From a virus (Duplodnaviria > Heunggongvirae > Uroviricota > Caudoviricetes): a DNA stretch of 64,000 nucleotides. Of the stretch, positions 8,470-12,810 are shown in pieces. The stretch's first letter is position 1; the number at the start of each line of letters is the position of its first letter. The notes beneath the pieces are model-generated. The model made no database searches. It was given only the letters and a program-made list of their open reading frames with translations, and had not been told where the DNA came from. The stretch is from positions 93,489-157,488 of IMG/VR virus record IMGVR_UViG_3300028914_000001, one strand, 5' to 3'. The translations under genes were made by a program, and so were the position numbers.

Positions 8470-9807
8470 CTACTCTTCGGTGTTTCCATTCATCTTTTCG
8501 TACTCAGCAATGTACTTGAAGATACCGTCGCTGAATCCGTTGATGTGAATGAACTTACCGTATTCAATTCCGTTCTGGTACGTTGCTACGTTCACAATGT
8601 ACTTGTGCGGAATTCTGAGTACTTCCTTGCTGAAGTAGCTACCAGAAGACTGTTCGTCCGTAATGATAATCAATCGGTCGAACGGTCTGTTGTTAGCCTT
8701 GACAGCATCGTTCGTGCTTCTCTGGATGTCAGTACCACCCATAGAACGAGCACAACGGTCAGCAAGAGAGAAACCCTTCTCCGTGCAAAGATGTGCAGTA
8801 TTGTCAAAGGTGTAGACCTTCGTGAACTCGCACACTTCGTTCATGATAGCAGCGATGGAAGCTGCTGCCTGAGCACGGGTGACTTCGCCCTTGCCGGACA
8901 ACTGACAACTCATGGAACCCGACGTGTCAACCATGAAGAGAGTGTTCCCTTCAAGCTTGTCGAACGTTTCCCTGGCGGATTGAAGCATTGCTGCTTCAAG
9001 CTGCTTGGAGTATGTTCCAGCGCTGTACTTGTTGGCCGTATAGAAGTTGTACGGCATGACACCACGAACATTCATCTTCTCGATGCCATCCACGATTGCT
9101 CGTTGTGACACCTTTGCCTGCTCCATGTTGCGGAGGTTCCTCAACAGGGCAAGCGCACCGAGCCTGTTCTGGGAAAGAAGGTTCTCGAAGACTTCCTTCT
9201 TATCCTTGCCTGCGCTCAACTCAGTTTCCCAGGTAAGCGGTGTTGCAAGGCTGTCGTCCACAATCTTCTTGTAGAGAGCGTTCGTTTCGTCGTTCGGGGC
9301 CTTCGGGTGGCAAAGCATGACCGCATCCTTCAAGGAAACCGTCTTCTTCGTGCCCTTGTACTTACCGAACTGGTACTCGTCGAACTTGGCGAATGCCAAT
9401 GCGAGACCCTTCTGCAACTGCTTCGGCAACGTCTTCTTGCCTTCCGCAAGGAACATTGCAAGCAACTCGGTGATGTCATCAACACGGGTTACGGTCGAAT
9501 TGACAAGTTCCTTGGTAAGCTTGCCTTGCTGTGCAAGAACAGTCAGCATGAACAACGGGGTATGACGAAGGTGATATTCGTGTTTTACCTTGTTCAATGT
9601 TGCAATGGCGAACTCGGTGCTGACCTTGCCCATGTACTCCTTGATGCGGTCCTTGACCGACTGACCGTCCTCATAGAACGTATCCTCGTTCAAAAGACAG
9701 CTGAGCACGGTACGCTGCAGCTTCTCCTCGTAGCCAATGTGTGATGCCTTTCCACCCTCGTAAGTAGACACCGGGGTAGATACCTTTCTCTTGTTAATCG
9801 ACGCCAT
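8470..9807 (-). CDS. rsr: Ro60/TROVE-domain RNA-binding protein with C-terminal vWA
   Basis: TYEGGKA, LRHTP, AFAKFDEYQFGKY, LKDAVMLCHPK, TWETELS, ALLRNLRNM; MIDAS DTSGSM, GGT, IIITDEQ; AAGGAG RBS before MASINK. Confidence 0.93.
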   Translation of the reverse strand: MASINKRKVSTPVSTYEGGKASHIGYEEKLQRTVLSCLLNEDTFYEDGQSVKDRIKEYMGKVSTEFAIATLNKVKHEYHLRHTPLFMLTVLAQQGKLTKELVNSTVTRVDDITELLAMFLAEGKKTLPKQLQKGLALAFAKFDEYQFGKYKGTKKTVSLKDAVMLCHPKAPNDETNALYKKIVDDSLATPLTWETELSAGKDKKEVFENLLSQNRLGALALLRNLRNMEQAKVSQRAIVDGIEKMNVRGVMPYNFYTANKYSAGTYSKQLEAAMLQSARETFDKLEGNTLFMVDTSGSMSCQLSGKGEVTRAQAAASIAAIMNEVCEFTKVYTFDNTAHLCTEKGFSLADRCARSMGGTDIQRSTNDAVKANNRPFDRLIIITDEQSSGSYFSKEVLRIPHKYIVNVATYQNGIEYGKFIHINGFSDGIFKYIAEYEKMNGNTEE

Positions 9808-9853
9808 AATCATCTCCTTTGTTGATTAGGAATTGTTGATGTTGAAAAAATAT

Positions 9854-9992
9854 TGCCAGATGCCGGACTCGAACCGACAACTTCCTGCTTGGATTATCTA
9901 AGTAGCACATCCAACGCCACAGACCATATGGACTGGGAAAAAGCGAACGTGAACATTGAGGGCTGGCGCTCTACCTATTGAGCTAATCTGAC
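9854..9992 (-). ncRNA. tRNA-framed Y-like RNA 1 (139 nt)
   Basis: Acceptor GTCAGAT/ATCTGGC, D arm and TTCGAGT T arm; anticodon loop replaced by a conserved insert. Confidence 0.8.
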
Positions 9993-10002
9993 ATAAATGT
10001 AG

Positions 10003-10147
10003 TGCCGATGGAAAGATTCGAACTTTCAATAGTTTTTAGCTAAGTAACTCTCACTATCGCAGCGGTTTCCCGAGAAAAGCGCAAGAGGAACATTTCCCCT
10101 GCCAGTTATCAACCTGTGACACAGATTGACGGGGAAATAACATCGGC
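10003..10147 (-). ncRNA. tRNA-framed Y-like RNA, D arm replaced by a long hairpin (145 nt)
   Basis: Acceptor GCCGATG/CATCGGC, T arm GAAAG-TTCGAAT-CTTTC, insert with TTTTCTCGG-GAAA-CCG...TTACTTAG. Confidence 0.7.
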
Positions 10148-10160
10148 ATAAAAATTGTAG

Positions 10161-10294
10161 TACCATAGGCTGGATTTGAACCAACGACCACAAGTTCCTC
10201 ATCGAAGTAAGCCATTCAAACGTCACCTTTTCAGGGAAAAAAGACGAAAGGCGATTTCATATACTCGTGCTCTACCAGACTGAGCTACTATGGT
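10161..10294 (-). ncRNA. tRNA-framed Y-like RNA 2 (134 nt)
   Basis: Acceptor ACCATAG/CTATGGT, D arm, T arm; CGAGT/ACTTG stem enclosing the insert. Confidence 0.8.
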
Positions 10295-10301
10295 ATTTTA
10301 G

Positions 10302-10385
10302 AGGAGAGAACAGGGTTCGAACCTGCGTGTCGTTTCCGACAAAGCTTTAGCAAAGCTCCGCTTTTACCAATTCAGCCATCTCTCC
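10302..10385 (-). tRNA. tRNA-Ser(GCU)
   Basis: Class II cloverleaf. Confidence 0.9.
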
Positions 10386-10389
10386 ATAA

Positions 10390-10463
10390 TGTGCTTGGCC
10401 AGAGTCGAACTGGCGACCTACAGTTTAGGAAACTGTTGCTCTATCCAGCTGAGCTACAAGCAC
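10390..10463 (-). tRNA. tRNA-Arg(CCU)
   Basis: Cloverleaf, loop TTCCTAA. Confidence 0.92.
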
Positions 10464-10470
10464 AAGCGGA

Positions 10471-10752
10471 TTACTTCAATGTATCATCAGTGTATTCCAA
10501 CGATACCTTGTCATTGCCGAAAAAGATTTCGACAGTAACAGTGTAAACCTTTTCAGTGTTGTACCTGTCCCAAACTCGCCACAACTTGGCACCAACGGAA
10601 GCTGCGGCACCCTGGAAGATGTCGCATACGCTATTAAGGACATCCTTCTTAGGCAAGGTCGTATCTTTGCTATCGACCGTTTTAAGCAACTTCGCCATCT
10701 TGTCAGCAACGGCTGCCTTTACAGCATTAACATCATTCAATGATGCACTCAT
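10471..10752 (-). CDS. hypothetical protein inside the tRNA array
   Basis: AAAGGAG RBS before MSASLND, 93 aa. Confidence 0.75.
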   Translation of the reverse strand: MSASLNDVNAVKAAVADKMAKLLKTVDSKDTTLPKKDVLNSVCDIFQGAAASVGAKLWRVWDRYNTEKVYTVTVEIFFGNDKVSLEYTDDTLK

Positions 10753-10780
10753 ATCATCTCCTTTACTGTTTAACATTTCG

Positions 10781-10865
10781 AGCGCACGGTAAGAGTCGAA
10801 CTTACGTGGGCGTTCAGCCTAGAGGTGTTGCAGACCTCCCCCTTCGACCGCTTGGGTACGTGAGC
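10781..10865 (-). tRNA. tRNA-Cys(GCA) with long variable arm (atypical)
   Basis: Loop CTGCAAC, U73, 16-nt variable region, Tyr-like D arm. Confidence 0.8.
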
Positions 10866-10869
10866 AAAA

Positions 10870-11550: not shown

Positions 11551-11557
11551 GTAATAG

Positions 11558-11630
11558 TACCCCATCAAGGGTTCGAACCTTGGACCCGCTGATTAAGAGT
11601 CAGCTGCTCTTCCAACTGAGCTAATGAGGC
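11558..11630 (-). tRNA. tRNA-Lys(CUU)
   Basis: Cloverleaf. Confidence 0.93.
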
Positions 11631-11639
11631 GAAACTTCG

Positions 11640-11712
11640 TGCGTTCGGCGAGACTTGAACTCACGACCCACGGATTAAAAGTCCGTTGCTCTACCAACTG
11701 AGCTACGAACGC
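11640..11712 (-). tRNA. tRNA-Lys(UUU)
   Basis: Cloverleaf. Confidence 0.93.
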
Positions 11713-11716
11713 ATAG

Positions 11717-11789
11717 AGCGGATAATGGGGTTCGAACCCACAACAACCTGCTTGGAGGGCAGGAACTCTACCAGTTGAGCTACATCCGC
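11717..11789 (-). tRNA. tRNA-Gly(UCC)
   Basis: Cloverleaf, U73. Confidence 0.92.
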
Positions 11790-12119
11790 AAAATTAGTTA
11801 ACCTTCGTGAATTCGAACCACGACACAGAACGAACCGAAGCCCGTTGTGCGCCAAACCTGGAGGCTAAGATTTGTGCACCAATCTATTGCACCATCAGCT
11901 CTTTGGGACGCTGACACCCCACCTTCATCTCGGGACGGTGCGAAACGCTATCTATTTGACACTCGCCAAGGCATAGAATTATCCTTATGTGAAGTTCACC
12001 CGCATTACCAGATACGGTTTTCGACGCCATATCCTTCCTGCCCTTTTTACTTCCAACTTTAGAGGCCGTTTGATTTGCAATGTCATCACAGTAAATAAAC
12101 GGTAAGAAAGCAAGATTCG

Positions 12120-12195
12120 TGGGCCCCCCGAGACTTGAACTCGGAAAACCTTCGGGTTATGAGTCCGCTGCTCTGACCTATTGAGCTAGAGGCCC
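12120..12195 (-). tRNA. tRNA with CAU anticodon, Ile2-like
   Basis: GGGCCTC acceptor typical of Ile2; weak anticodon stem. Confidence 0.7.
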
Positions 12196-12342
12196 AGAAA
12201 CAATTTGATTAGGATAGCACCAATGAGCAGCACGTTGTATTACTACAACTCGGTCTCACAGCTACCATTTCCCTCCCTTGGAGGAGAGCGTATTAAGCAC
12301 TCAGCATTACTACATTGAGTTCATTTATACGACTAATCTTAG

Positions 12343-12473
12343 CGCCAGCGGCAGGACTCGAACCTACGACCCCGAGCTTCCTAATGCTAAGTAACCCATT
12401 CCAAAACGCCACCCTTGCGGGAGAAAATGCGGACAGGTGTTGTACGTGCTCTAACCAACTGAGCTACGCTGGC
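12343..12473 (-). ncRNA. tRNA-framed Y-like RNA 3 (131 nt)
   Basis: Acceptor GCCAGCG/CGCTGGC, D arm, T arm; insert capped by CCC-GCAA-GGG. Confidence 0.8.
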
Positions 12474-12480
12474 AAAAAAA

Positions 12481-12575
12481 ATCCAGGTAAATGCAGAAAC
12501 CGATGTGCCCATCGCAAGGCACTATACATTAAGAGTGTACAAGGTCTATGTATCGGTTATCTATCGACACTGGAT
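12481..12575 (-). ncRNA. free Y-like RNA A (~95 nt)
   Basis: ATCCAG-TGTCG-ATA-GATAACCGAT ... ATCGGTTTCTGCA-TTTAC-CTGGAT. Confidence 0.6.
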
Positions 12576-12585
12576 GAATTTCTAG

Positions 12586-12714
12586 TACCAGGGGCAGGAC
12601 TCGAACCTACGACCACGAGCTTAACAGGCTAAGTAACCCGTTCCAAACGCCACCCTTGCGGGAGAAAAACGGACAGGTATTTTTACGTGCTCTAACCAAC
12701 TGAGCTACCCTGGA
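12586..12714 (-). ncRNA. tRNA-framed Y-like RNA 4 (129 nt)
   Basis: Near-identical insert to RNA 3, inside a tRNA frame. Confidence 0.8.
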
Positions 12715-12723
12715 GAAAAATTA

Positions 12724-12810
12724 AAGTCAGGTAAAAGACGAAAGCGCATTGCCATAGGCGAACGGATTTGCAGTCTGTTTCTAAGTAACGCTTTCAAACG
12801 ACACTGACTT
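12724..12810 (-). ncRNA. free Y-like RNA B (~87 nt)
   Basis: AAGTCAG-TGTCG-TTT-GAAAGCG-TTACTTAG ... CGCTTTCGTC-TTTTAC-CTGACTT. Confidence 0.7.

Follow-up and report, generated by a model that had tools for sequence, protein, structure and literature searches.

Probable Ro60 partner RNAs on ordinary, non-permuted tRNA frames in a giant rumen phage, unrelated phages and bacteria

The stretch of viral DNA considered here (hereafter the window) comprises 64,000 nucleotides (nt), positions 93,489 to 157,488, of IMG/VR record IMGVR_UViG_3300028914_000001 (Caudoviricetes), and encodes a homologue of the RNA-binding protein Ro60 (Rsr) together with five RNAs, A to E, that combine the frame of a transfer RNA (tRNA) with a shared bulged module. 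We judge it likely that these framed RNAs are partners of Ro60, namely YrlA-type Y RNAs whose tRNA frame is of the ordinary, non-permuted sort. Published YrlA RNAs are circularly permuted tRNA-like molecules with a closed acceptor and neither a free CCA end nor an anticodon loop, and their RNA ends lie in the Ro60-binding stem (PMC4201824; 10.1101/312249). The framed RNAs have the reverse connectivity, as a preliminary description of this DNA had proposed: the acceptor is formed by each molecule’s own ends, 7/7 of its pairs covary, and the module is closed by a capped hairpin. The window holds the module in both connectivities, framed in A to E and unframed in two companion RNAs, F and G, and the non-permuted layout recurs in unrelated phages and in bacteria and is not a local oddity.

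The Ro60 gene and the framed RNAs

The open reading frame (ORF) upstream of which the RNAs lie had been named Ro60 from its letters alone, and database searches agree. Its product matches the Pfam TROVE family PF05731 at 58 bits (cut-off 23) and the PHROG family phrog_850, “RNA-binding protein” (E 1.7e-41), comes just short of the cut-off for vWA_Ro60 PF25045 (24.9 against 27.7 bits), and aligns over its full length (residues 12-437, E 1.4e-26), MIDAS motif (an adhesion site dependent on metal ions) included, with the Ro60 of Thermus phage phiLo (PDB 9L5Y/9KOP).

All five RNAs lie on the minus strand exactly where the preliminary description had placed them (Table 1), and their anatomy is as it gave it: lengths of 129-145 nt, a T arm throughout, a D arm in all but B and a 7-base-pair (bp) acceptor stem made from the molecule’s own ends. 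A, B and C are found 40-480 nt upstream of the Ro60 ORF, with A ending 40 nt short of the start codon, and D and E, like F and G, 2.5-3.0 kb upstream, all on the same minus strand. The further claim that the module replaces the anticodon loop holds for A and C, in which it sits on a contiguous 5-bp anticodon stem (CGAGU/ACUUG in C; in A with a central A-A mismatch and a fifth pair that is C-G in the window and G-C in relatives), but not for D and E, in which the module branches off after 2 bp and an anticodon-like hairpin is kept. B has neither a D arm nor an anticodon arm (fold z = -3.7).

D and E share one frame order (D arm, A26, C-G, a module of 55-57 nt running to UUACUU, AGC, loop, GCU, C-G), in which the 3-bp anticodon-like hairpin carries a loop of 7 or 8 nt: at 12375-12388 in D (AGC/GCU stem, 8-nt loop) and at 12618-12630 in E (loop CUGUUAA). 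Orthologues of D have an AGU/ACU stem with a CUGCAAA loop, a compensatory change, and the outer stem pair of RNAs of this type covaries (GC 12, CG 4, UG 3, GU 2). The same branch design occurs in L017, L043, L076, L120, the phage cr106_1 and Chryseobacterium. E has a U-U mismatch at position 1-72. A usable 7-nt anticodon loop on an unbroken 5-bp stem is found in none of A to E. Two orthologues of D (L002:3116-3241 and L005:2796-2921) pair a GCA anticodon-like loop with U73; tRNA-Cys owes its identity mainly to these two features, a GCA anticodon and U73.

Conservation and covariation support these folds. All five RNAs are kept in six related contigs whose Ro60 is 84-93% identical, and the orthologue groups drawn from them show compensatory acceptor-stem changes in every case: in A the acceptor and T stems both change in this way, in B an acceptor C-G pair becomes U-A and the pairs of the long hairpin covary, and in C five pairs are changed on both sides. 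Across 22 distinct sequences 97.2% of cells pair, compared with 36-45% when the partners are slid, and 7/7 acceptor pairs change on both sides; within the window’s clade the D stem is invariant while the T stem and the module helices covary. A covariance model trained on the C, D and E groups (R1) scores A at 71.2, D at 137.6, E at 138.5 and, weakly, B at 36.6 bits. Sixteen independent sequences from bacteria and unrelated phages, none of them used in building R1, give 96.6% paired cells against 29-47% with slid partners, acceptor stems that are 100% paired and, again, 7/7 acceptor pairs that change on both sides.

The comparison with Rfam suggested in the preliminary description was carried out, and the framed RNAs match tRNA only; no Rfam model has this topology. 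The tRNA model RF00005 (cut-off 29) accepts A at 43.5 bits and C at 48.0 bits, both over model positions 1-71, with inserts of 71 and 65 nt respectively. D and E taken whole fail the tRNA threshold, and only the 3′ part of E is recognized (24.9 bits in Rfam; called tRNA-Asn GTT by ARAGORN). The best YrlA scores in the window, 17.6-20.8 bits (E 0.4-3.7; cut-off 69), straddle adjacent tRNA genes, and the transfer-messenger RNA (tmRNA) model has no match to the framed RNAs. We give no weight to a presumed likeness of the module to human Y RNAs with their succession of lower stem, bulge and upper stem, the Rfam Y_RNA model having no match in the window.

The shared module and its linkage to Ro60

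The module has a constant order: a terminal or capped stem, a small loop in which UG faces a UUYY tract, a short GNYG helix, a bulge of 2-5 nt (typically 3 nt, often UAG or UUU), a covarying variable helix of 6-8 bp and UUACUU(C/A)G. The conserved parts are GNYG, the 3-nt bulge and UUACUU(C/A)G, and the final two bases of the conserved UUACUUAG belong to the anticodon stem. GNRA caps are present as first described, and C too has one (GAAA). Where a copy is permuted, the pyrimidine tract forms the 3′ tail, paired to the 5′ end; where it is framed, this tract runs into the GNRA-capped hairpin. The framed and permuted layouts are thus one handle that differs in connectivity.

The unframed companions show the second layout within the window itself. 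RNA G has the handle strand first and the pyrimidine strand last, a terminal stem AUCCAG/CUGGAU and borders that coincide exactly with E and D; its place in orthologues holds UUACUUCG (e.g., L002 around 3044). RNA F, kept in L001-L006, has a terminal stem AAGUCAG/CUGACUU and an anticodon-like hairpin with the loop CUGCAAA. Cuts of the tRNA type at tRNA-Tyr, E and D would set F and G free.

We predict that the module is the likely Ro60 handle, because the same module flanks Ro60 genes that are only 26-38% identical. At these loci a permuted YrlA (RF02553, E 1e-9 to 5e-6, under the curated cut-off) lies directly upstream of the gene, and the handle motif G[GU]YG..UACUUCG is found upstream of Ro60; in L010, the locus that was inspected, the motif sits at the 5′ end of the YrlA match. 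Caulobacter phage CcrColossus is one of those listed as having published Y RNA-like RNAs; in the 1.2 kb upstream of its TROVE gene, GGUGGCG-UAG-N7-UACUUCG occurs five times. The resemblance to a reported motif that was put forward earlier for the module, as GNCG...GAANG, is weak: the GNYG portion is conserved, but the GAANG half is not general. In the framed RNAs GNYG stands in mid-molecule, rather than close to the 5′ end as the motif of YrlA does, and is followed by the 2-5 nt bulge and the variable helix, with GAA following in some copies only.

Scans with a 14-base motif, or with a loose pattern (D arm, 45-75 nt, TACTTMG), are dominated by chance matches until filtered by model, acceptor or Ro60; among the 115 new loci found by the 14-base motif alone, 12 have Ro60 on the same strand, and in 10 of these the gene starts 100-500 nt downstream. 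A pattern of 21 bases specific to the framed succession of D arm, handle and T arm, with the added requirement of a perfect acceptor stem at a fixed, canonical offset (a search over 195 nt had produced spurious framed calls containing G-U pairs), yields 12 bacterial and 30 viral loci, with Ro60 inside the fetched stretch (8 kb for the bacterial loci) in 11 and 9 of them, respectively.

The linkage to Ro60 is tight in several lineages. In Chryseobacterium indologenes, C. kwangjuense, C. endalhagicum, Chryseobacterium sp. JK1 and a Soonwooa metagenome-assembled genome, a framed RNA, single in each locus, lies 200-300 nt upstream of rsr on the same strand, on contigs of 0.2 to 2.9 Mb. Two of these RNAs match only tRNA in Rfam (45.8 and 44.1 bits), and none of the five loci has a YrlA match at E <= 0.001. 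L346 and L362 have the same arrangement, with the framed RNA 200-300 nt upstream of Ro60. In the cultured crAss-like gut phage crAss001 and 20 further isolates from Bacteroides intestinalis an unannotated framed RNA (in crAss001, MH675552 96452-96599) is found just downstream of the TROVE gene gp96, a gene reported to be early (PMC8375218), and in cr106_1 the framed RNA likewise lies just downstream of the TROVE gene. cr106_1 also carries, ~2.3 kb upstream of that gene and beside two tRNAs, a 304-nt “tmRNA” of the GenBank annotation (L252:1365-1668). Framed RNAs that lack a D arm, like B, occur in low-GC phage contigs with a distant Ro60 and consist of an acceptor GGGGAAG/CUUCCCC, a T arm and the handle. 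The framed RNA at L076:7089-7217, in a small phage, lies between a primase-like gene and a terminase; L380 and L398 are similar. A blastn search of RNA D against GenBank phages gave no match, which reflects the sensitivity of the search, not absence.

Table 1. Location of the Ro60 gene, of the framed and unframed RNAs of the window, and of framed RNAs at other loci
Feature	Location	Strand	Length	Description
Ro60 (Rsr) homologue	8470..9813	-	447 amino acids	TROVE ring and vWA domain, MIDAS D-T-S-G-S
Framed RNA A	9854..9992	-	139 nt	Acceptor, D arm, anticodon stem, module as loop, T arm
Framed RNA B	10003..10147	-	145 nt	Acceptor, T arm, module; long hairpin substitutes for D arm
Framed RNA C	10161..10294	-	134 nt	Complete cloverleaf frame, module as anticodon loop
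Framed RNA D	12343..12473	-	131 nt	Module branching from anticodon stem past 2 bp
Framed RNA E	12586..12714	-	129 nt	Module 12631-12685, between anticodon-stem pairs 2 and 3
Unframed Y-like RNA F	12715..12811	-		Module in classical polarity; fold; between tRNA-Tyr and E
Unframed Y-like RNA G	12474..12585	-		Module in classical polarity, no tRNA frame; read from sequence
Chryseobacterium/Soonwooa framed RNAs	L308:2634-2764, L309:6364-6494, L284:2111-2238, L332:5639-5771, L271:4581-4710			
crAss001 (MH675552) framed RNAs	L254:2504-2647, L254:2759-2897			R1 65.4 bits (first); weaker, 35.6 bits (second)
Framed RNAs without D arm	L074:4208-4331, L046:4952-5072, L040:898-1019, L095:7134-7261			

Biogenesis, function and competing explanations

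The source record, 175 kb long with a completeness estimated by CheckV at 42%, belongs to a giant rumen phage that is present in bovine and sheep gut metagenomes and has a relative with a 419-kb contig. On the minus strand, positions 7999-16712 hold 35 ordinary tRNA genes that serve all 20 amino acids, and the Ro60 ORF is embedded in this array. None of the array’s tRNA genes encodes CCA; C-U-A follows the discriminator in most of them and likewise in framed RNAs B, C, D and E, and the framed RNAs are separated from neighbouring genes by 0-13 nt. These short spacers and the shared C-U-A trailer point to tRNA-like processing. The framed RNAs would be transcribed within a long tRNA-array transcript, from which RNase P and a tRNA 3′ end nuclease probably release each one, CCA being added as for the neighbouring tRNAs; we consider such release and CCA addition probable because the 7-bp acceptor stem, the T arm and, in four of five, the D arm are kept. 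Ro60 would then bind the extra arm, made up of the capped stem, the U-rich loop, the GNYG helix, the 3-nt bulge, the variable helix and single-stranded UUACUU(C/A)G. The tRNA body may serve as the counterpart of the YrlA tRNA-like domain and a stable scaffold, and, as analogy suggests, also as bait for tRNA-recognizing proteins or in the handling of damaged tRNA, together with a host exonuclease and the phage’s RtcB RNA ligase. The gene for the latter lies on the same phage contig outside the window, ~38 kb from Ro60 (G000:C1:28808-29875; PF01139, E 1.2e-61). In Salmonella, the rsr-yrlBA-rtcBA operon reacts to damaged tRNAs (PMC7790460). Phage Bas63 has a Ro60-like protein that acts against a defence system, and the authors of that study guessed that some adjacent “tRNA” genes might be Y RNAs (PMC11482910).

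Several points weigh against the framed RNAs being Ro60 partners. The published motif, GNCGAAN0-1G, is not seen in them in its strict form. The alignments behind the pairing statistics were fitted to R1 and so are biased toward its structure. The metatranscriptome data are assembled contigs from four runs, which reveal neither the ends of the RNAs nor their strand or level, and carry-over of DNA into the RNA libraries is possible. Addition of CCA would depend on the host, because no CCA-adding enzyme (PF01743) was found in the 175-kb record (estimated to be 42% complete). Ro60 binding, RNase P and CCA processing, charging and any downstream role are inferred; what the sequences show is the RNAs, their fold, the module in both connectivities and its tight genomic linkage to Ro60. 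Finally, the framed RNA of L076 stands in a contig (25.6 kb, CheckV 70% complete) in which no Ro60 was detectable, and the two framed RNAs of a 476-kb phage (G004) lie ~123 kb from Ro60.

These last two cases, along with several real-looking anticodon loops (GUU, GCA, UGU), would also fit an explanation that is independent of Ro60, in which the framed RNAs are tRNA-derived decoys or sensors for tRNA-targeting defences, or punctuation for the processing of the array, and Ro60 is a frequent but non-obligatory neighbour. We think this unlikely. The module signature is conserved across Ro60 lineages that are <30% identical, it is common to classical YrlA, and Ro60 tracked the RNA in 11/12 bacterial cases; moreover, the contigs in which Ro60 is lacking are not complete, and Ro60 might be supplied by the host.

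It also seems improbable to us that the framed RNAs are mature, CCA-tailed mimics of tRNA, some of them read by tRNA enzymes, which would tether Ro60 to a chargeable or cleavable tRNA and bring it to the machinery of translation or of tRNA damage as a sensor of, or decoy against, tRNA-cutting immunity. The candidates for such reading are E, with its CUGUUAA loop, and the D orthologues with a GCA loop and U73; a synthetase, EF-Tu or anticodon nucleases of the host are the enzymes that might do so.

Less credible still is that the module is an intron, excised and its flanking halves ligated by RtcB to give a working tRNA (e.g., tRNA-Asn from E) and a free or circular Y RNA. E without its 55-nt insert would indeed be a perfect cloverleaf in which a 5-bp anticodon stem bears the loop CUGUUAA, orthologues of D would yield a GCA anticodon, two of them with U73, and the phage encodes RtcB. 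Excision would, however, leave A and C without an anticodon loop, B without a D arm and the window’s D with an 8-nt loop, and the last two bases of UUACUUAG sit within the anticodon stem. The permuted relatives share the anticodon-like hairpin, where excision could never give a tRNA, and ordinary tRNAs already cover all 20 amino acids. No splicing endonuclease (PF01974) was found in the 175-kb fragment (42% of the genome by estimate), and no motif of the bulge-helix-bulge type was evident by eye at the insert borders, no formal test having been made. The RNA libraries were checked for splicing, the outcome that had been named as contradicting the preliminary description, and no sign of it was seen: the contigs retain the inserts, one of them running unspliced over 8415-10126 with zero mismatches and another over 11821-12633 at depth 233, where bins of the Ro60 ORF in the same run reach 1-29. 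Joints in D and E that skip 72 and 74 nt were considered as splice junctions and rejected for their low depth and the loss of the anticodon arm as well; they remove RNA positions 27-100, have 21 letters on one side and fit foreign tRNAs.

A mis-parse, in which the true units are permuted YrlAs that join the T half of one unit to the D half of its successor, their tandem arrangement merely simulating a tRNA frame, is extremely unlikely: tandem permuted YrlAs are common in bacteria and fit the same loose pattern, and weak Rfam YrlA matches do cross tRNA junctions, but those scores are noise (<=20.8 bits against a cut-off of 69), the acceptor 3′ strand complements its own unit’s 5′ end and not the next unit’s, with 7/7 pairs covarying, C follows an ordinary tRNA-Ser, and the Chryseobacterium and crAss001 copies stand outside any tRNA or Y RNA array.

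Between tRNA-Cys and tRNA-Gln of the array, ~600 nt of non-coding DNA (10866-11476) are covered by RNA-library contigs at a depth of 386-583 in run X17 and 70.8 in X6, far exceeding the Ro60 ORF in those runs. Two further non-coding gaps, 11790-12118 and 12196-12342, lie under one 805-nt RNA-library contig of depth 233. An Rfam scan of all three gave no family match. A 101-amino-acid ORF with a good ribosome-binding site, isolated amid tRNA genes at 10471-10776 on the minus strand, has no family in Pfam or PHROG searches.

Known Ro60 RNAs and the meaning of the framed layout

The framed RNAs share much with YrlA. Like it they adjoin Ro60 on the same strand (the criterion for YrlA being ~4 kb), often in multiple copies per locus, and have a tRNA-like domain with T and D arms and a bulged GNCG-type helix off the anticodon side; the permuted YrlAs that we fetched from phages and bacteria carry the same UUACUUCG handle. 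Unlike YrlA, the framed RNAs end at a 7-bp acceptor, their handle is capped, D and E keep an anticodon-like hairpin, and the Rfam YrlA model is blind to them. The YrlA of Mycobacterium smegmatis, which RNase P cleaves at a 7-bp acceptor stem and which receives CCA in vivo (PMC4201824), is thus a precedent for a Ro60-bound RNA with a tRNA-type 3′ end; it is, however, permuted and becomes a nicked, two-piece molecule, whereas each framed RNA would be one chain that has tRNA ends at the outset. In Yrn1 of Deinococcus radiodurans the place of the acceptor is occupied by the Ro60-binding stem, and the anticodon arm is a closed one (PMC4201824). Its tRNA-like elements are oriented otherwise than in YrlA, so connectivity varies in the family, and the framed RNAs differ in having a true acceptor.

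The Ro60 of phiLo is the closest solved relative of the window’s Ro60 and likewise has Y-like RNAs, Yrl1 and Yrl2, just upstream (PMC12135203; PDB 9KOP, 9L5Y), but by description these follow the classical stem-bulge-stem plan, with a CGAA motif and no tRNA frame; in vitro, phiLo Ro60 and its Y RNAs form a complex with the host PNPase (PMC12135203). With the tRNA-like domain of tmRNA the D-arm-less B, L074 and L046 share an open acceptor and T arm and a replaced lower half, although the framed RNAs have no mRNA-like region and no SmpB link. A parallel also exists in biotechnology, where an RNA of interest is placed in the anticodon arm of an engineered tRNA scaffold for stable expression. The logic is the same, in that the tRNA body gives end processing and stability to a passenger helix, but the framed RNAs are natural and conserved, and their tRNA body is probably functional bait too. 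We found no description of a non-permuted Y RNA form in the literature searched, some reviews and supplements being outside that search.

The framed layout is, on this evidence, a widespread and apparently unpublished variant of a known family of Ro60 RNAs, whose function we infer. The Ro60 handle rides on tRNA frames of ordinary topology too, sometimes together with an anticodon-like hairpin, and the Rfam YrlA model overlooks such probable Ro60 partners, which score in Rfam only as tRNA with a long insert. The layout also points to a possible origin of YrlA, since the junction of tandem framed units holds the exact order of a permuted YrlA, which fits the idea of a dimeric pre-tRNA put forward by Wang et al. 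(10.1101/312249). Ro60 takes its place, beside RtcB, among the tools with which giant phages supply and repair tRNA, and the role of the Y RNA tRNA-like domain becomes testable in culturable systems, crAss001 with Bacteroides intestinalis and Chryseobacterium.

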